Positions 300 through 8,014 of a stretch of 64,000 nt of DNA are shown piece after piece. Each line of letters starts with the position of its first letter. Positions within the stretch are counted from its first letter, which is position 1. Position numbers and translations under genes: made by a program. The DNA is from a bacterium (GTDB lineage: Bacteria; Zhuqueibacterota; Zhuqueibacteria; Residuimicrobiales; Krinioviventaceae). The notes beneath the pieces were generated by a model that was not told the origin of the DNA, searched no databases, and saw only the letters and a list, made by a program, of their open reading frames with translations. Location: contig OY843751.1 in NCBI GenBank assembly GCA_963693055.1, positions 3,136,001 to 3,200,000 on the forward strand, written 5' to 3'.

Positions 300-812
300 C
301 TATCTATTTATTTCTTTATATTCTTTTTCCGTCTTGAACAATTTAAATCCCCTTGCAATATAGTTTTCAAGAGCAGCTGGATGATCAAGATTACAGGTAT
401 GTAACCAAACACGTTTAGCGCCAGCATTCCAGGCACCTTGAATAGCCTGTGACAAGAAAATCCCCCCCAGTCCTTTACCTATAAACTGCTTTAACAATCC
501 AAAATAAACAATTTCAACATCTCCCCCATTTTGAAATTCCAGCTCAAAATAGCCTGCAGGTGTATTTTTATAATACCCAATCCAGGTTTCCAGTCCCTTG
601 CGTGTACCATATTGATGCCATTGTTCATTTGTCCATTCAAGCTTGTCTATCCAATCCCAATGGCTGCCAACAGCAATATAAAACATTTTATTTATTTCAG
701 GACATTCAACATCAATTTTTTTAGACCAAAAATCAGGATCAATTTGAGCTGAAGGAGAATATTCAATTTTATCTTTCATTTCAAGATAATAAACAGTCAT
801 TTCAACATTCAT
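300..812 (-). CDS. GNAT family N-acetyltransferase
   Basis: Acetyl-CoA motif 'FIGKGLGG' and 'RVWLHTCNLDHPAALENYIARGF'; start trimmed to ATG 812, directly after the upstream stop at 814. Confidence 0.85.
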   Translation of the reverse strand: MNVEMTVYYLEMKDKIEYSPSAQIDPDFWSKKIDVECPEINKMFYIAVGSHWDWIDKLEWTNEQWHQYGTRKGLETWIGYYKNTPAGYFELEFQNGGDVEIVYFGLLKQFIGKGLGGIFLSQAIQGAWNAGAKRVWLHTCNLDHPAALENYIARGFKLFKTEKEYKEINR

Positions 813-813
813 A

Positions 814-1620
814 TTAATCTTCCCAGTTGAAATAAACAGCAGTACCACGATCCATCTGTTGAAAAGACAATTCAAAACGATTACCGGTTCTGGGGGTCCA
901 CACATAAGACCAGTTGTCACAGATACCGGCCTGACAAATGGGTTGATTATCGTTCAAGATTTCAAGGCCAAAATAGAGTACATCCCCTTTATATTTTGAT
1001 ATATCGCAAACTGTATTAAAAACCGGTTTACCAAATTTCCATTCAATGACAGTAAAATCCAGTTCAATGTCCTCATCATCAAATAATCCTGACACAAGCG
1101 CACCATCAAGCTGTTCGAGCACATTCTTGTCAATAACATCATCTTTAAGAATCTTTGAATCAATACATCCCCCTCGCAAGATTGCATGATCAGGAAAGAC
1201 TTTTGAGGGTTTAAATTGCAACTTTTCCAGGCTCAAGATATCTTCATCATACAACATTTGTCCAAATAATTCTTGCACCAATACAGCAACCGGTTCAGGA
1301 GGAACAAAACTTTGAATATCAGAATGTATCACCGTAACATTGTCATATTTTTCAAGGCGTTTTTTAGCAATCTGATACATTTTTATATTTGTTTCTACAG
1401 CGTAAACTTGCTTTGCACCCAACTTTGACATATGCTCAGAAAGGATACCAAATCCACAGCCAGCCTCAACACAAACAGCATTTTCAATATATGCTTTATT
1501 TTGGGTCAACATTTCTAAATAAGCATTTGTACGATTTTCATCATCGTAAATACTTATAAATGCCAATAGATCATCAATTTTATTAAAACGATTTTCATCC
1601 AACTCGTTAATAATATCCAT
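814..1620 (-). CDS. SAM-dependent methyltransferase, protein-arginine methyltransferase (PRMT)-like
   Basis: 'DENRTNAY', motif I 'VEAGCGFGILS', post-I 'VYAVE', E-x8-E loop 'ELFGQMLYDE'. Confidence 0.75.
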   Translation of the reverse strand: MDIINELDENRFNKIDDLLAFISIYDDENRTNAYLEMLTQNKAYIENAVCVEAGCGFGILSEHMSKLGAKQVYAVETNIKMYQIAKKRLEKYDNVTVIHSDIQSFVPPEPVAVLVQELFGQMLYDEDILSLEKLQFKPSKVFPDHAILRGGCIDSKILKDDVIDKNVLEQLDGALVSGLFDDEDIELDFTVIEWKFGKPVFNTVCDISKYKGDVLYFGLEILNDNQPICQAGICDNWSYVWTPRTGNRFELSFQQMDRGTAVYFNWED

Positions 1621-1626
1621 AAATTA

Positions 1627-4389
1627 CTAGTTACCTTTATTTTTTGATGGAGTAAAAGTTTTACGTATTTCTAACTTTTTCTTTTTGACCGTAAAATCCA
1701 CTTTTTTCATTTTCTGGTCCATTGTTAATACAAATTCATGAAAAGGTTCATCCACAAATGTTCTCAAAGGTAACCATTTTTTATCAATTTTTACACGATA
1801 AAATCCAGGTACCAGGTCAGTAAATTTATAATATCCATTCGCATTCGTGAAAATTTCACGTAATAGTCCCATTTCATTTTCCAACATCACTCGAATTTGA
1901 TTTAACGGATCATCTTTGCCATTAAATTTGTGATTGTTATCCAAATCCAGAAAAACATTTCCCTCAATCAAACAAACCGATGTTAGAGGAATTTGTAAAT
2001 GAATTACAGAACCACGATTTATTGAAATAATTTTTTCATACTCTCCTTGAATTTGTAAATAAGCAGGCAAAGTTGAAACATCAATTTTGAATTCGTAATC
2101 ACCGGCATCAACCGGACTAAATTCAAACTCTCCATTTGAACTGGATATAACAGTTTCATCATTAAAATGCAATAAAAGCTGAGACAATCCAGGTTCGTCA
2201 GGCTCTCGAATTCCATTCTGATTTTTATCAATATAAATTTCACCCTGTAGGGTACCTTTGGTTTTAATAAATGGCACAGGTACATTGAATCTTGGCAATA
2301 TGGTTGATGTCATGGTAGCTGACAAACGCCACTCTCTTGTCAGCATGTCGAGTTCAGAAATAGAGTTACTTAACTCAAATCTTAGATTATAATTATTATT
2401 AAATGGATGTAATTGTAATCCTGTTCTTACACTTCCATAAGTAAGTTTGACTTTACTAAAAATCCCTTCATCATCTAAATACCCTAAATAGCCGGTAGTT
2501 AGTGAAAAACCAAATAAAAATCCTTTTATATTTGTATCAAAATCCAAAATATATTGATCTGTATTTTCATATTTTTTTTGTAAAGTAGATCTATATTCAA
2601 ATTTAAATCTGGACAGGTAATAAAACATATTCAAACCGGCAGAGTATCTTTGGGTATTCGAATACACAAGGGAATTCAACCTGTCTTCAAGACTCCTAAA
2701 ACCTAAAAAAGGAATAAATACGCCAATTTTTCTTTGTAATGCTATTTCAAAAGATTTCAAATCCGTATATTGCAGTTGCTCGGTTTTAACATCTTTGAAA
2801 TTAAAACTTGAACTTGTATCAAAAAGGTAGGGTATACGGAGAAATGTTCGTAATTTTATATCGGTAACATTTTCCAGAGAATCCGGGTATATTGAATTTA
2901 AATCTTTATTATAACGATGAATACTATTCCAGATATAAAACCTGCTGACAGGAGCATATCGGGATGTCAGTAAAGCACCATATGTGCCCCGGTCAGTTCC
3001 CTGAAAAGTATCGTCAGCCCAATGTAATGCTCCCGTTAGATAATACTTTTTATGATTTGTTTTAAATTGTACTTGAGCGGCTCCGCTGGTTGGCTTGTTT
3101 TCAGCTCTGCTTAACCCTGTATAGATGCTGATATTATGAGCACTGTTTCCCAGGATTGACGATGAAGTTATAAATGAAGCAGTATCTGCTTTAAAATATT
3201 CAGTTGATAATGAAATTTCATTTTTTTTAAATTTCAAACTAGAATAAAAAAATCTATCATCTTTGTATAATTTTTTCCCCTTGAACAAAATCACAGAATA
3301 GTCGTCTAATTTTAAATTCAAAAATCCTCCCCTGCTCAACTGTCCAAAAGTAAACAGATTACTGTATTGAGTAATGCTCAAGTCTGCAAGTAATGGATTT
3401 AATAATAAACTGGAATCTCCTAACCGAATTGTGCTATATTTGTTTTGTAAACCTAATTTATATCTATGCATATAGAATTCGGGTGTATCATTTGTTCTGG
3501 TTAGATTAGATTTTAAGGTAGATTCAAATAGAATTTGAGAGCGTCCCATCTTGATATTACCCGTTTCCAAATATATTTCAGTGTCAGGATAATATCCTTT
3601 TTGAATTCGGTTAAAAGAAAATCCCATATTTACTGGTAAATAAATTCCCAAAGATCGGTCCAATGCTTTTGGCGCCTGAATTAATTTAACAGGAATAGTT
3701 TGTATGATCCGTTCAGTATTCCAATTTGTACCGGTTTCTATTCGAATAGTGTATTGGTTTTGCAATTGTACATCAATGGGCGTCTCAAAATAAAGTTTAA
3801 TATGTTTTTGGGTAAATGGTTTCAAGATAAAACTTTTCTCAAGTTGAGGATTAAAATTCCAATGAGGAGGTAAAACAACATTGCAATTAACCGTATCTAA
3901 TACGTTACCGGTATTTTTAATGATAAAGGAAAGCGAATCTTTTGCTGCAGGAAACACAGATTTCCTTTTTTCAAGAAAACCAACTTTGATATTTCGTTTT
4001 GGCTTGATTGCGATTTGGGTTGCAGATGAATCGGTAAATCCATCAAATGAGGTAAATAATTTCAAATAATACTTTATATTTGCTTTAGTAGAATTTGGTA
4101 TATTGAGTGTTACCCTAACTCTTGCTTTAGACAGTGAAGGAATACTGTCAGGTGTTGAAAAAGTTATCAAATTCCATTCATCAGGTTTGATTATTTGAAA
4201 TTCAGGATATATTGTTTTTTCGGATGTATTGGTTATTATATAAGAAAAAAGTGGAAATTCACCGGGATTCACAGAGCGAGATTCGGAATGTCTGACGATC
4301 AATGACCTTGATGGATCTACAGAAACCGCAAAAGCATTAACTCCCAATAATACTAAAATTAACACAATAAACTGGTGTGAAATCTTCAT
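1627..4389 (-). CDS. Large exported usher-like outer-membrane protein (N-terminal Ig/NEW3-like repeats, central beta-barrel, two C-terminal SdrD-B-like domains)
   Basis: Signal peptide; two repeats with 'I.NT' and 'P..W' motifs; amphipathic aromatic-rich strands; 'GEIYIDKNQNGIREPDEPGL' and 'GNVFLDLDNNHKFNGKDDPL' SdrD-B Ca loops. Confidence 0.6.
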   Translation of the reverse strand: MKISHQFIVLILVLLGVNAFAVSVDPSRSLIVRHSESRSVNPGEFPLFSYIITNTSEKTIYPEFQIIKPDEWNLITFSTPDSIPSLSKARVRVTLNIPNSTKANIKYYLKLFTSFDGFTDSSATQIAIKPKRNIKVGFLEKRKSVFPAAKDSLSFIIKNTGNVLDTVNCNVVLPPHWNFNPQLEKSFILKPFTQKHIKLYFETPIDVQLQNQYTIRIETGTNWNTERIIQTIPVKLIQAPKALDRSLGIYLPVNMGFSFNRIQKGYYPDTEIYLETGNIKMGRSQILFESTLKSNLTRTNDTPEFYMHRYKLGLQNKYSTIRLGDSSLLLNPLLADLSITQYSNLFTFGQLSRGGFLNLKLDDYSVILFKGKKLYKDDRFFYSSLKFKKNEISLSTEYFKADTASFITSSSILGNSAHNISIYTGLSRAENKPTSGAAQVQFKTNHKKYYLTGALHWADDTFQGTDRGTYGALLTSRYAPVSRFYIWNSIHRYNKDLNSIYPDSLENVTDIKLRTFLRIPYLFDTSSSFNFKDVKTEQLQYTDLKSFEIALQRKIGVFIPFLGFRSLEDRLNSLVYSNTQRYSAGLNMFYYLSRFKFEYRSTLQKKYENTDQYILDFDTNIKGFLFGFSLTTGYLGYLDDEGIFSKVKLTYGSVRTGLQLHPFNNNYNLRFELSNSISELDMLTREWRLSATMTSTILPRFNVPVPFIKTKGTLQGEIYIDKNQNGIREPDEPGLSQLLLHFNDETVISSSNGEFEFSPVDAGDYEFKIDVSTLPAYLQIQGEYEKIISINRGSVIHLQIPLTSVCLIEGNVFLDLDNNHKFNGKDDPLNQIRVMLENEMGLLREIFTNANGYYKFTDLVPGFYRVKIDKKWLPLRTFVDEPFHEFVLTMDQKMKKVDFTVKKKKLEIRKTFTPSKNKGN

Positions 4390-4406
4390 AAAAATCAGCT
4401 CAGAAT

Positions 4407-4853
4407 TTACTGTTTTCGACTTTTTACTTCAATAACCAGATTCGTGCTGTATACAGAAGGTTTTGTATTCCAATCTACTAAAATTCGGAAATCAATTTTC
4501 ACTTTTTCATTTCCTATACCAGATTTTACTAAATTCTTTTGCAATTCAACAGCATGATAATCCTGACTTTGTGATAATTTCCATAACAAATCCTGATGTG
4601 GTTTTTCCAGTTCGACAGGATAAAACCAAGGTTGCTCAGTATATATATATAATTCCCAATAGGTTTCTTTTAAACTATTAATATTTACCAGAAAATCATC
4701 AACATTGGCATGTGTTTCAACATACCCCCTATCCAAATCAACAATTGTAGGAACAGGGATTTGTAAGGTTAAAAGGTTACATTGGATAATACCATCGAAC
4801 CCCCAAAGTACCAAAGGATAAAATAAAAGATAAATTATAAAAATCTTTTTCAT
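4407..4853 (-). CDS. Secreted minor pilin-like subunit
   Basis: Signal peptide; beta-rich; shares DxxRGY, WxLxIY and D(F/Y)R motifs with neighbour; C-terminal 'PSVYSTNLVIEV' strand. Confidence 0.55.
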   Translation of the reverse strand: MKKIFIIYLLFYPLVLWGFDGIIQCNLLTLQIPVPTIVDLDRGYVETHANVDDFLVNINSLKETYWELYIYTEQPWFYPVELEKPHQDLLWKLSQSQDYHAVELQKNLVKSGIGNEKVKIDFRILVDWNTKPSVYSTNLVIEVKSRKQ

Positions 4854-4861
4854 ATACAAAG

Positions 4862-5341
4862 CTAATTTAAAGGTTCAAGTCTTATTACAGGATCAAAAAT
4901 CCAATTACCGGCAGGTGTTGAGTTGACATCGATTTTCATTCGATAATCTAACATTATCTCCATATCATGCACACCTGCTTTTCCTGTATAGATAACCTGG
5001 GGTACCTGAGACATGCTGAAAAAATTATGATTGTTTGCACAAACACTAAAATCGGAAATGGGTTTAAAAATACCCTGGGTAGTGTATAGATTGGAACGTG
5101 TAGAATAGATGACCAATTGCCACTCAACATTACTGGAAATACGTATTGTTACAGCATCGGTGATCTCGTAATACCCTCTTTCATAATCAGAGAATGTCAT
5201 GTTAGGGAAACTTTTGGTATGTATTATTTGAAAATTTTGAAGCGGCGGAACATTAAAATATAGTGTAATATCTTCTGATTTTTGAGAGAATATTGAAGAG
5301 GTTAATAGCAAAAATAAAAAAGTTTTAAATCTACGGGACAT
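4862..5341 (-). CDS. Secreted minor pilin-like subunit
   Basis: Signal peptide from ATG 5341, overlapping the chaperone stop; 'ISSNVEWQLVI' and C-terminal 'DYRMKID..TPAGNWIFDPVIRL'. Confidence 0.55.
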   Translation of the reverse strand: MSRRFKTFLFLLLTSSIFSQKSEDITLYFNVPPLQNFQIIHTKSFPNMTFSDYERGYYEITDAVTIRISSNVEWQLVIYSTRSNLYTTQGIFKPISDFSVCANNHNFFSMSQVPQVIYTGKAGVHDMEIMLDYRMKIDVNSTPAGNWIFDPVIRLEPLN

Positions 5342-6131
5342 TAAAAAACGCCTCACCAGCAACAAGAAAATCACCTAAAAAATCTACTACAACAAGAGCT
5401 GAATAATCGCCTTTATCAAGATCAATAATATTATCAAATTTAATAGTTTTGTATTTATTTGGCAAACAATTAAAATTTTTATTTTCAATTGTTTTTACGG
5501 TTTCGCCCAACTCATTTCGAATATCCACATAACTATTACATTTTAAACGAGTATTGCCAATATTTTTAAACACAGATTTAACTTTTAATGAATCATTCAT
5601 CGAATTATATTCAGCGGTAACATTTGCAATTTCTCCATTGTTTTCTGAATTTTGGTCAATAGTTACATAAAACCAAATGTATGACCGAATATTCATATAT
5701 ATGGTATAAGAAGACTGCTCATTTTGGGTTTGAAAACCAATCTGTGGTTCTTCATCTGGTTCAACAACAATAACTCCATAATATGTACCAGACAAATTAG
5801 AATCAGGTATTGCCAGAGTAAATCGAACATTCTGAGATTGCATAGGGGTAACAGAAAAATTTTCTGGACTTAAAAAAATCCATTCCATGCAGCTTCTCTC
5901 AGTTTCACCAACATCGGTTATTTCTATCTGATCATCCTCTACAACCAAATCACTCAGAAAAACACGATATTTCATTGTAGAATCTGCCTGATTAAGCAAA
6001 GAAAATGATTGATTTATTGAATCACCAGGTGAAACATGAAAATCAAACGACATGGGAGCTATTTGCCAACTTTCTTGCGCAAAACAAACACTTGTGGTAA
6101 AAAATAATAAAAGAATAATTACTTTACGCAT
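5331..6131 (-). CDS. Periplasmic two-Ig-domain pilus chaperone-like protein (PapD/DUF916-like)
   Basis: Signal peptide; 'IAPMSFDFHVSPG', 'WIFLSPENFSVTPMQSQNVRFTLAIP', 'GTYYGVIVVE', 'FKNIGNTRL', 'GDYSALVVVDF'. Confidence 0.7.
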   Translation of the reverse strand: MRKVIILLLFFTTSVCFAQESWQIAPMSFDFHVSPGDSINQSFSLLNQADSTMKYRVFLSDLVVEDDQIEITDVGETERSCMEWIFLSPENFSVTPMQSQNVRFTLAIPDSNLSGTYYGVIVVEPDEEPQIGFQTQNEQSSYTIYMNIRSYIWFYVTIDQNSENNGEIANVTAEYNSMNDSLKVKSVFKNIGNTRLKCNSYVDIRNELGETVKTIENKNFNCLPNKYKTIKFDNIIDLDKGDYSALVVVDFLGDFLVAGEAFFNVP

Positions 6132-6166
6132 TTTTAAAATCGCCTAAATAATATTGAATATATATG

Positions 6167-6196
6167 AAAAAGCAGTTCCGCAAGCGGAACTGCTTT
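6167..6196 (-). terminator. Intrinsic terminator/attenuator after the major pilin-like gene
   Basis: GCAGTTCCGC-TT-GCGGAACTGC hairpin followed by TTTTT on the minus strand. Confidence 0.8.
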
Positions 6197-6222
6197 AAAT
6201 TTAAAATTGTAAAATATAAAAA

Positions 6223-6819
6223 TTAAGGAGCTTCGGTTGCTTCCCATACATTTAATGTAACCGTAACAGAGTAAGCACCTGCTACATCAACACCAGCTTC
6301 TAAATCAAATTGAATATCGCCGGCAAAATCATTTACCCATACACCCTGAGCATCACTTGAAGTTACACAAGCCTGACCACTTGATCCTAATTCAGTCATA
6401 GTCCCCATAGAATTAGACAAATCACCAAATGTAGTACCAGGATCAATTTGAAGTCTTAAACCAGATGCATTAGGACCATAATTGTCAGGATGTTTGTTTC
6501 CTGTATTTGGATAAGCAGCGGGTACTGTCCAAGCTGAACATAGTGCTTGTACTTCAGTATCATAGTTTGTAGTCAAATTACTAACAGTAAAATAATCAGC
6601 AATTGTATAATTAGCAGGTGAGCCAGGTGCACCAAAATCTCCCAGAGTAATGCTATTCCACTCGGCTACCCATGCAATGGGTGTCATAAATGAAACTGTA
6701 AAAGTTGTTAATCTTCCAATTGTTCCAGAACCGCCACCTGAAGATCCAGTACCTTCTTGACCAAATGACAATACTGCCATAGTTAAAATTAATAATAGAA
6801 CAAGTAGTGTTTTTTTCAT
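6223..6819 (-). CDS. Secreted major pilin-like subunit (WxL/SCPU-like single beta-sandwich)
   Basis: Signal peptide, strong AGGAG RBS, Gly/Ser linker then alternating strand 'TTFTVSFMTP', two Cys, C-terminal 'AGAYSVTVTLNV'. Confidence 0.6.
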   Translation of the reverse strand: MKKTLLVLLLILTMAVLSFGQEGTGSSGGGSGTIGRLTTFTVSFMTPIAWVAEWNSITLGDFGAPGSPANYTIADYFTVSNLTTNYDTEVQALCSAWTVPAAYPNTGNKHPDNYGPNASGLRLQIDPGTTFGDLSNSMGTMTELGSSGQACVTSSDAQGVWVNDFAGDIQFDLEAGVDVAGAYSVTVTLNVWEATEAP

Positions 6820-6904
6820 TAGAAAACTCCTTTTAAAAATGATTAGTTTGATTATTTACTTTTCACTCTACGTTTACATCACCTCCCAATCATCATCATT
6901 CAAA

Positions 6905-8014
6905 TTATTCAACTTTGGTCATTTTTTTAATCAAACTGGTACCATTTGCTTCAAGCTTGTAAAAATAGACACCGGAACTGATGCTGTTGGCATTATAATC
7001 AAGACCGTTCCAGTCAATACTATAATAACCTGCAGATTGGTTGGCATCTACCAAGGTAGCAATTTTCTTACCCAAAATATTAAATACTTGCAGGGATACA
7101 TGACTATCTATAGCCAATTCGTATCTTATTTTTGTACCTGGATTAAAGGGATTGGGGTAATTTTGCTGCAATACCATAGATGTAGGTGCTTTTGTGGTAA
7201 TCTGGGTACTGGCAATAACATTTGTTTCACCCTTTATTGTAACTTCCTGTACCTGATACCAATACGTTTTATCAATATCAATAAAAGTGTCAGTAAAAGA
7301 ATATTCTGCAGCAACAGTAGCGCTGCCTTTTGCAGGTAACAATGCAGATGTAATACATTGGTAATCACCATCAACAGCATCACTGCGGTAAATGTGGTAA
7401 CCCTGGGTTTCAATTTCAGATTCGGTACGCCAGTTGAGATCAACTTTGTCTTTATTATAATCTGCGGAAAAACTGGCCAATTGAACAGGTAAAGGAAAAT
7501 CTGTAAGAGAATTCACTGTTACAGTACCAGCGATATCAGTAACAAAATCACTACTCTCTATAACTTGTAATGGAGTTACTGCCTCTTTCGTAATCGTGCC
7601 CGTATTATCAGTTGGATTATAATTTATTGTTATCCTTGCAATCAATGTTGTTGCTCCACCAGAACCATCAATGGTAAGATATGGACTAGAGAATTTATCA
7701 TATGAAATCGATAATGTTTTTTCAGTACCACCAGAGGAAGTTAACGCTTGACTATAACCAGCAGCAACTGAAAAATATCTTGAAGAACCAACCGCACTAA
7801 TATATTGACTGGTTAGCGCTGCATTCATATGTAGTTTCAAATAAAATGCGGCAATCTCAGGTGTTTCTGCATTATCATCGGTAGTTGCATTGACATCAAA
7901 CACCAATTGACCTGAAGTATTACTGACAAAATCTACAGTAACATCAACAGCAGCCTGTAATGCGGAAAAACTAACAACCAGAATAACGAGAATTAATGGT
8001 AACAACCTTTTCAT
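6905..8014 (-). CDS. Secreted surface protein with T9SS type A/FlgD-Ig C-terminal sorting domain
   Basis: Signal peptide; 'PLPVQLASFSA', 'LNWRTESE', 'LQQNYPNPFNP', 'SSGVYFYKL...KKM'. Confidence 0.85.
   Translation of the reverse strand: MKRLLPLILVILVVSFSALQAAVDVTVDFVSNTSGQLVFDVNATTDDNAETPEIAAFYLKLHMNAALTSQYISAVGSSRYFSVAAGYSQALTSSGGTEKTLSISYDKFSSPYLTIDGSGGATTLIARITINYNPTDNTGTITKEAVTPLQVIESSDFVTDIAGTVTVNSLTDFPLPVQLASFSADYNKDKVDLNWRTESEIETQGYHIYRSDAVDGDYQCITSALLPAKGSATVAAEYSFTDTFIDIDKTYWYQVQEVTIKGETNVIASTQITTKAPTSMVLQQNYPNPFNPGTKIRYELAIDSHVSLQVFNILGKKIATLVDANQSAGYYSIDWNGLDYNANSISSGVYFYKLEANGTSLIKKMTKVE

Follow-up and report, generated by a model that had tools for sequence, protein, structure and literature searches.

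A compact bacterial protein with a predicted PRMT fold, a distinctive putative active-site loop and a short dimerisation arm

Described arginine methyltransferases and the gene studied

In protein arginine methyltransferases (PRMTs) two glutamates hold the guanidinium group of the substrate in a pocket completed by a THW loop, and the binding of SAM is supported by dimerisation (PMC8619983, PMC8226133). Single changes switch the product of T. brucei PRMT7 (TbPRMT7) (PMC8226133). Bacterial homologues are in print: Aravind et al. described them (PMC3417536), and a 2022 review lists predicted Legionella PRMTs, with Rv1988 as the one arginine-methylating nucleomodulin (PMC10117894). Methylation of the guanidino group of arginine is also catalysed by SznE/StzE, which makes N-omega-methyl-L-arginine (PMC11705231, PMC13755311) and a homologue of which marks the saskemycin cluster (PMC12637814). 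Arginine methylation of bacterial proteomes has been reported, is little studied and has largely unknown writers (10.1101/2021.10.06.463415, 10.1101/2023.06.29.546327, PMC10117894); the cited passages of this literature name no PRMT-fold writer with shown activity. That bacteria carry PRMT homologues is already known, and the earlier note, which met a bacterial PRMT with surprise as a member of a mainly eukaryotic family, overstated the case in view of the homologues in print (PMC3417536, PMC10117894) and of several other bacterial PRMT-like clades in our tree.

The gene studied here lies at 814..1620 on the reverse strand of the window, the whole stretch of 64,000 nucleotides that was analysed; all parts of the protein described below are encoded on this strand. 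The reading frame starts with ATG, ends with TAA and comprises 268 codons with zero internal stops. Comparison with the orthologue from the same genus gave dN/dS = 0.054; the gene is intact and under purifying selection. It is a single-copy gene: the genome holds no second PRMT-like paralogue, the four other matches being weak Rossmann hits at E 1.6e-5 or worse. All motifs quoted in the earlier note were found again in the translation, namely IYDDENRTNAY at residues 24–34, VEAGCGFGILS at 51–61, LGAKQVYAVE at 67–76 and PEPVAVLVQELFGQMLYDE at 108–126, and the counting of E117-x8-E126 was right. A promoter scan stayed at chance level.

Predicted fold, active-site residues and dimer

An AlphaFold2 model built with 120 sequences reached a pLDDT of 94.6 and a pTM of 0.90. 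Foldseek with the whole model returned PRMTs in all 40 best rows, headed by TbPRMT7 (4m38; E 8.8e-17, TMq 0.71). The VIA search likewise placed PRMTs at ranks 1–15, of which ranks 1–14 had Z values of 18.2–22.4 with 235–261 of the 268 residues aligned at an rmsd of 2.8–4.2; the first non-PRMT followed at Z 12.4. PrmA, the ribosomal protein L11 lysine methyltransferase, shares the class I SAM-binding Rossmann domain, whereas its structure (3grz) matched at Z 12.0 over 136 residues, compared with Z 22 over about 250 residues for PRMTs, and PrmA stayed below the Pfam (18.3 vs 22 bits) and NCBIfam cut-offs. The PRMT barrel expected by the earlier note, as opposed to PrmA or a small-molecule methyltransferase, is thus borne out by the predicted model: PRMTs fit nearly the whole chain (Z 18–22) and PrmA about half of it (Z 12).

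So that the Rossmann domain could not dominate the search, residues 141–268 were also folded alone (82 sequences, pLDDT 92.2). For this barrel the VIA search again gave PRMTs at ranks 1–15 (Z 8.9–4.4, 114–127 of 128 residues aligned), only three matches reaching Z 8 and the next unrelated structure scoring 3.7; PrmA was absent from the 50 rows. The best Foldseek rows were all PRMTs with TbPRMT7 first, at E 0.016 or weaker. By sequence, a profile of the C-terminal part found no significant match to PRMTs or to anything else. The reduced beta-barrel with its inserted arm (residues 145–268, 817..1188), as delimited by the predicted model and the structure searches, is compact when set beside 37 type I-like proteins: from the motif III proline to the loop tryptophan it counts 95 residues vs 125, and in the tail after the NW motif 32 vs 63. 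Overall, type I PRMTs have about 60 residues more in their C-terminal part, and half of this difference falls after the NW motif. Judged by these models, the protein belongs structurally to the PRMT family, having a Rossmann domain, a double-E loop and a C-terminal beta-barrel.

By residue range, the two top barrel-only VIA matches belong to the C-terminal half of PRMT7, one from C. elegans and one from mouse, and this module is inactive in mouse PRMT7 (PMC8399567). Inactive PRMT paralogues such as TbPRMT3 exist as well (PMC8226133), so that a catalytically dead, prozyme-like or merely binding protein of the PRMT fold may be considered. The SAM motifs and both glutamates are, however, intact and conserved, and the genome offers no second PRMT-like paralogue that such a protein could support, which makes this explanation extremely improbable.

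Sequence comparisons led to the same family for the N-terminal part. Pfam yielded generic methyltransferase matches and PRMT5 (PF05185, 26.3 bits, over cut-off), while all 21 NCBIfam matches were below cut-off. The best matches in a phmmer search of PDB sequences were CARM1 (E 1.7e-11), PRMT3 and other PRMTs. With the family profile, 55 of the 57 best rows above the first rRNA methyltransferase were titled arginine methyltransferases, the best being PRMT3 at E 2e-17; the likeness to PRMTs is therefore not due to chance. Alignment with eukaryotic type I PRMTs by hhalign had a probability of 99.8 over residues 5–182 and brought the D-x-x-R motif, motif I, post-I and the double-E loop into register. 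E117 and E126 paired residue for residue with the loop of CARM1 in the phmmer alignment and with that of PRMT3 in the family profile.

Conservation was counted in 217 non-identical full-length family sequences. Within the helices corresponding to alphaY and alphaZ of PRMTs (residues 9–34, 1519..1596), R30 is invariant, and Y25 and D27 are each present in 216 of 217. The SAM-binding motif I (E/D52, G54, G56, G58) and post-I (E76, N78) extend over residues 49–78 (1387..1476), with G54 and G56 invariant and E76 found in 216/217. In the double-E loop (residues 116–127, 1240..1275; E117, G120, D125, E126) every sequence keeps G120 and D125, an acidic residue always stands at position 117 (Glu in 177, Asp in 40) and E126 occurs in 215; the pair is EE in 177 sequences and DE in 38. 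R244 is conserved in 195/217. Ile24 (204/217) stands where type I PRMTs carry Met, and the second Tyr of YxxY is replaced in the family by I15 or Val.

For the loop that completes the pocket, the earlier note had pointed to a DNW motif. N236 and W237 are indeed nearly invariant (215/217 and 216/217), but D235 occurs in only 50 of 217 sequences, so that the motif is NW. A forced profile alignment placed D235-N236-W237 on T-H-W with a column confidence near zero, and other settings did not reproduce it; because of this very low confidence we infer rather than observe that the segment C-x4-C-x-N-W (residues 229–237, 910..936) is the equivalent of the THW loop. N236-W237 would then be a THW-like motif with Asn at the His/Gln position, the canonical His being absent. 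C229 (201/217) and C234 (203/217) precede the NW motif and form a possible disulfide or metal site, judging from the sequence; position 223 is His in 175/217 family members and Asn in this protein.

The top Pfam and NCBIfam scores belong to RrnaAD/Erm-type models, and in its pocket the protein departs from each of the three PRMT types (Ile24, Y25, H116, D125, Asn at the THW position, the cysteine pair). Both observations would suit a PRMT scaffold turned to another target, i.e. lysine, histidine, an alpha-amine or a nucleobase. This is improbable, since the RrnaAD/Erm matches cover only the generic SAM-binding residues 41–125, with NCBIfam scores far below cut-off, and both glutamates are nearly invariant at the exact spacing that binds guanidinium (PMC8619983, PMC8226133).

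The earlier note had further supposed a protein without the long dimerisation arm. This holds in part: the arm is short rather than missing, because residues 154–182 align by hhalign with the arm region of eukaryotic PRMTs and residues 160–179 lie in the predicted dimer interface. It comprises residues 154–179 (1084..1161) with a helix at 165–169 and a strand at 173–177, D160, G173 and L175 being conserved. The minimal 268-residue bacterial PRMT of that note accordingly keeps its full, predicted PRMT architecture, distinct from PrmA or a small-molecule Rossmann methyltransferase, and loses only the supposed lack of a dimerisation element.

When two copies were predicted together with SAH, 3 runs gave an ipSAE of 0.86, whereas the highest-scoring control out of 3 stayed at 0.00; the contacts agreed by at least 98% and the pLDDT was 93. 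In the calibration, 20 of 30 solved homodimers but 1 of 23 single chains attain the ipSAE mark; the dimer job differed from it by its custom alignment and ligand. The score may reflect likeness to solved PRMT dimers. The predicted interface has a familiar part, in which residues 160–179 contact helices 11–25, 57–59 and 84–88 of the Rossmann domain, and a second part, in which the N-terminal strand (residues 1–7, 1600..1620) is swapped onto partner strands 173–177 and 261–264. To our knowledge, the latter interface has no counterpart in solved PRMTs. The otherwise puzzling conservation of D2, I3, N5, L7, L175 and F264 fits the swapped strand. Moreover, the N-terminus of the partner is predicted to touch residues 121, 122 and 125 of the double-E loop and residue 240. 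The protein is thus predicted to form a homodimer, of the head-to-tail kind known from PRMTs, held by residues 160–179 and the swapped N-terminal strand.

Among solved structures, TbPRMT7 (type III; 4m38, 5eku) is the best Foldseek match for the whole model and for the barrel, with a VIA Z of 21.9 over 255 residues. Both proteins have the E-x8-E loop, a homodimer of single modules (predicted here) and an amide at the THW position, Gln329 in TbPRMT7 and likely Asn236 here (PMC8226133). Compared with PRMT7 and PRMT9, on the other hand, identity is about 18–20%, and the bacterial protein is about 70 residues shorter and has the short arm, the predicted swapped strand, the invariant D125 and the C-x4-C pair. 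A special kinship with PRMT7 is not shown, because the VIA scores for PRMT6, 3, 2, 10 and 7 are tied within 1; with regard to the type III signature, TbPRMT7 ranks first in Foldseek with VIA tied, and the putative THW position holds Asn rather than Gln. The type I PRMTs (PRMT1/Hmt1, PRMT3, CARM1, PRMT6, PRMT2, PRMT8) are the best sequence matches and reach VIA Z 21–22. Their signature residues are absent from the protein, which has no THW His (Asn236), no Met at the M48 position (Ile24) and no second YxxY Tyr, and in the unrooted tree the family does not fall within the type I group of eukaryotes.

Family distribution and genomic surroundings

A word-indexed search retrieved 227 proteins at E <= 0.001. 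The best 120 of these 227 relatives are 45–62% identical over the full length and nearly all about 268 residues long; the family median is 269, and an extra C-terminal domain is absent. An exhaustive profile search found 29 representatives at E <= 1e-30, after which scores dropped to matches of the N-terminal part only, at or below about 85 bits, mostly type I-like PRMTs with THW motifs. According to the record titles, the family loci among the matches listed come from KSB1, Calditrichaceae, Bacteroidota, Rhodothermus, Ignavibacteria, WOR-3, Omnitrophota and Spirochaetota MAGs. In the host phylum the gene is present in only 43 of 167 genomes (29 of 105 of high quality), with one match each and a patchy distribution by family, and it is therefore dispensable.

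A quick maximum-likelihood tree of the catalytic part was calculated (89 rows, 169 columns, unrooted; 'eukaryote' labels set by motifs, not by records). The 19 family rows formed one side of a long branch with SH-aLRT 99 and stood apart from the group in which the majority of eukaryote-type rows lie. The tree also contained several further bacterial PRMT-like clades, its deeper branching being without resolution. A recent transfer from eukaryotes is unsupported by this tree. The other bacterial PRMT-like clades (those of Aravind et al. 2012, the predicted Legionella PRMTs and a clade of about 385 residues with D-x8-E/D) share the bacterial origin and the PRMT-type N-terminal core, whereas the present family is separate from them, shorter, not operon-linked and set off by a clear score gap.

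Several further observations concern compact or distant relatives. One widespread bacterial PRMT-like clade of about 315–395 residues occurs in Acidobacteriota, Chloroflexota, Myxococcota, Cyanobacteriota and others; in many of its members Asp takes the first double-E position (D-x8-E/D). An uncultured tailed-phage protein of 313 residues in BFVD (A0A6J5L7A5) matches the model at TMq 0.63 (E 5e-14), and the feature neighbours in the ESM Atlas comprise two bacterial clusters together with phage, archaeal and CPR clusters of 250–313 residues; compact PRMT-like proteins may thus occur in phages and archaea. No phage-borne members of the family were found in IMG/VR or PHROGs, and GenBank phages gave 3 weak partial matches. 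The distant PRMT-like proteins P0172 and P0198 carry a late N-N-W motif and are placed near the family without starred support; no tie to a phage was found for P0198. Two family loci (L021:6001-6822 and L029:5833-6479) are split over two frames by frameshift or assembly error and have a guanylate-cyclase/CHASE2 context.

Downstream of the gene, a GNAT acetyltransferase of 170 residues (300..812, reverse strand) begins at its likely start, the ATG at 812 rather than a GTG at 920, 1 nt past the PRMT stop codon. It was rejected as a constant partner: it is adjacent in 4 genomes, 12 of the 43 genomes with the PRMT contain it, and 12 of the 24 genomes with the GNAT have no PRMT, these counts resting on a single-protein query. 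Upstream by 7 nt lies a reverse-strand usher/pilus-like cluster (1627-8014) with a 920-residue usher-like protein (SdrD_B and carboxypeptidase-regulatory domains), a protein with a T9SS tail, and four secreted-looking proteins of 150–266 residues, one with a weak WxLIP_PGBD match; it looks like a pilus or surface-fibre module. It was likewise rejected as a partner, being missing at this place in the same-genus genome, where traB sits directly upstream of the PRMT gene.

The neighbourhoods were compared in 139 loci, some of them duplicated between searches, that form 50 groups at 65% identity. No neighbour family recurred in more than 4 of the 50 groups except secreted proteins with a T9SS-like tail, and these were rejected as background, as they occur in 13 groups by BLAST clustering (11 by HMM) and 19–37% of random genome windows hold one. 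Assigned by Pfam, 40 neighbours were unrelated housekeeping, signalling and hydrolase genes with no NRPS and no radical SAM among them.

Another role would be the tailoring of an arginine in a peptide, ribosomal or non-ribosomal, whose genes lie at another place in the genome, as has been proposed for other bacterial PRMT clades. Such a role is conceivable, as the closest bacterial PRMT sisters sit in peptide secondary-metabolite operons according to Aravind et al. (PMC3417536). We regard it as very improbable nevertheless: among ORFs of at least 50 aa no precursor-like ORF recurs beside the gene, nor does any radical SAM, NRPS or peptide transporter, the family is its own long-branch clade (SH-aLRT 99) apart from the clade of about 385 residues, and neither an extra C-terminal domain nor, as weak evidence, a fused form of 500–2000 residues was found.

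SznE is PRMT-like, and an analogous small substrate has to be weighed for the present protein. SznE/StzE and the saskemycin homologue share with it the bacterial setting and the SAM-dependent methylation of the arginine guanidine, known for them and proposed here (PMC11705231, PMC13755311, PMC12637814); they are cluster-encoded and act on free arginine, whereas the present family is stand-alone, a distinction drawn from the published descriptions. A stand-alone enzyme of this kind could use free L-arginine or a small guanidine such as agmatine or a peptidoglycan- or lipid-linked guanidine. The predicted contacts of the partner N-terminus with residues 121, 122, 125 and 240 agree with this, since a swapped N-terminus on the double-E loop could cap the peptide groove and thereby favour a small substrate, and so does the minimal size of the protein. 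The invariant D125 and the conserved R244 could bind the amine and the carboxylate of a free amino acid. Histone or RGG substrates, the lack of which likewise speaks for a small guanidine, were rejected for this genome, which has no histone-fold match (PF00808), no di-RGG or closely spaced tri-RG box in 5480 crudely called ORFs and a single RRM protein with just a short basic Gly tail. Against a small guanidine stands that no biosynthetic or arginine-related neighbour recurs in the 50 locus groups and that nothing in the complete genome matches PF14518 (a heme-oxygenase-like family taken as a proxy for SznF) or PF02274 and PF19420 (ADI/amidinotransferase, DDAH), a condensation domain appearing only below threshold. 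On balance, we consider a small substrate, the main rival to the reading favoured below, rather unlikely.

Proposed activity and its meaning

Summed over all substrates, arginine N-methylation is highly probable for this protein, because the guanidinium-clamp, THW-loop and dimer elements each have a conserved, in part putative, counterpart. A protein, at about even odds, is a likelier carrier of the methylated arginine than a small guanidine; it is suggested by the stand-alone context, the absence of methylarginine-using enzymes and the acid-rich conserved set (13 acidic vs 5 basic conserved columns), the net charge being negative in 69% of the family and so not uniformly acidic. The specific reading that we favour, a dimeric SAM-dependent arginine N-omega methyltransferase likely acting on a cellular protein and likely monomethylating, has in our estimation about an even chance of being correct.

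By analogy with PRMT enzymology, a cytoplasmic homodimer would transfer one methyl group onto an arginine of a protein in its own cell. SAM would be held via R30, motif I and E76, E117 and E126 would clamp the guanidinium group, and N236 would likely act as Gln329 does in TbPRMT7 or His293 in PRMT1. In the dimer, the short arm (160–179) would pack on the Rossmann helices of the partner, and residues 1–7 would swap onto the partner barrel, where they would border the way into the active site of that subunit. The product would, as a guess, be monomethylarginine, made at a single basic site or a small number of them and not at RGG repeats. Monomethylation is guessed from three features: the top structural match is TbPRMT7, a type III enzyme, an amide occupies the putative THW position, and YxxY lacks its second Tyr; this grading is kept weak because single substitutions change the product in TbPRMT7, and the product type is uncertain because Ile24 replaces the type I Met and the first Glu is Asp in 40 of 217 sequences.

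No paper on this family of 268-residue proteins was found in the open-access literature, the main body of literature covered. A well-conserved, minimal family of the PRMT fold that stands out by its putative active-site loop and its predicted dimer mode has apparently not been described. We propose tentatively, and at somewhat less than even chances, that it represents a stand-alone enzyme of the true PRMT fold that marks the proteins of its own cell, that it is close to the smallest working PRMT with the swapped strand compensating for the short arm, and that Asn-Trp constitutes a new type of active site.

Should the enzyme act on proteins of its own cell, it would count among the writers of arginine methylation in bacteria; should free arginine prove to be the substrate, it would be a modest addition beside SznE. 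As a small, single-domain, stand-alone enzyme that is easy to express and to assay, it makes the question of the writer directly testable, and it would offer a minimal scaffold for studying how the THW position and the dimer architecture set the product type. Rhodothermus and WOR-3 are among the lineages whose contigs supply many members of the family.
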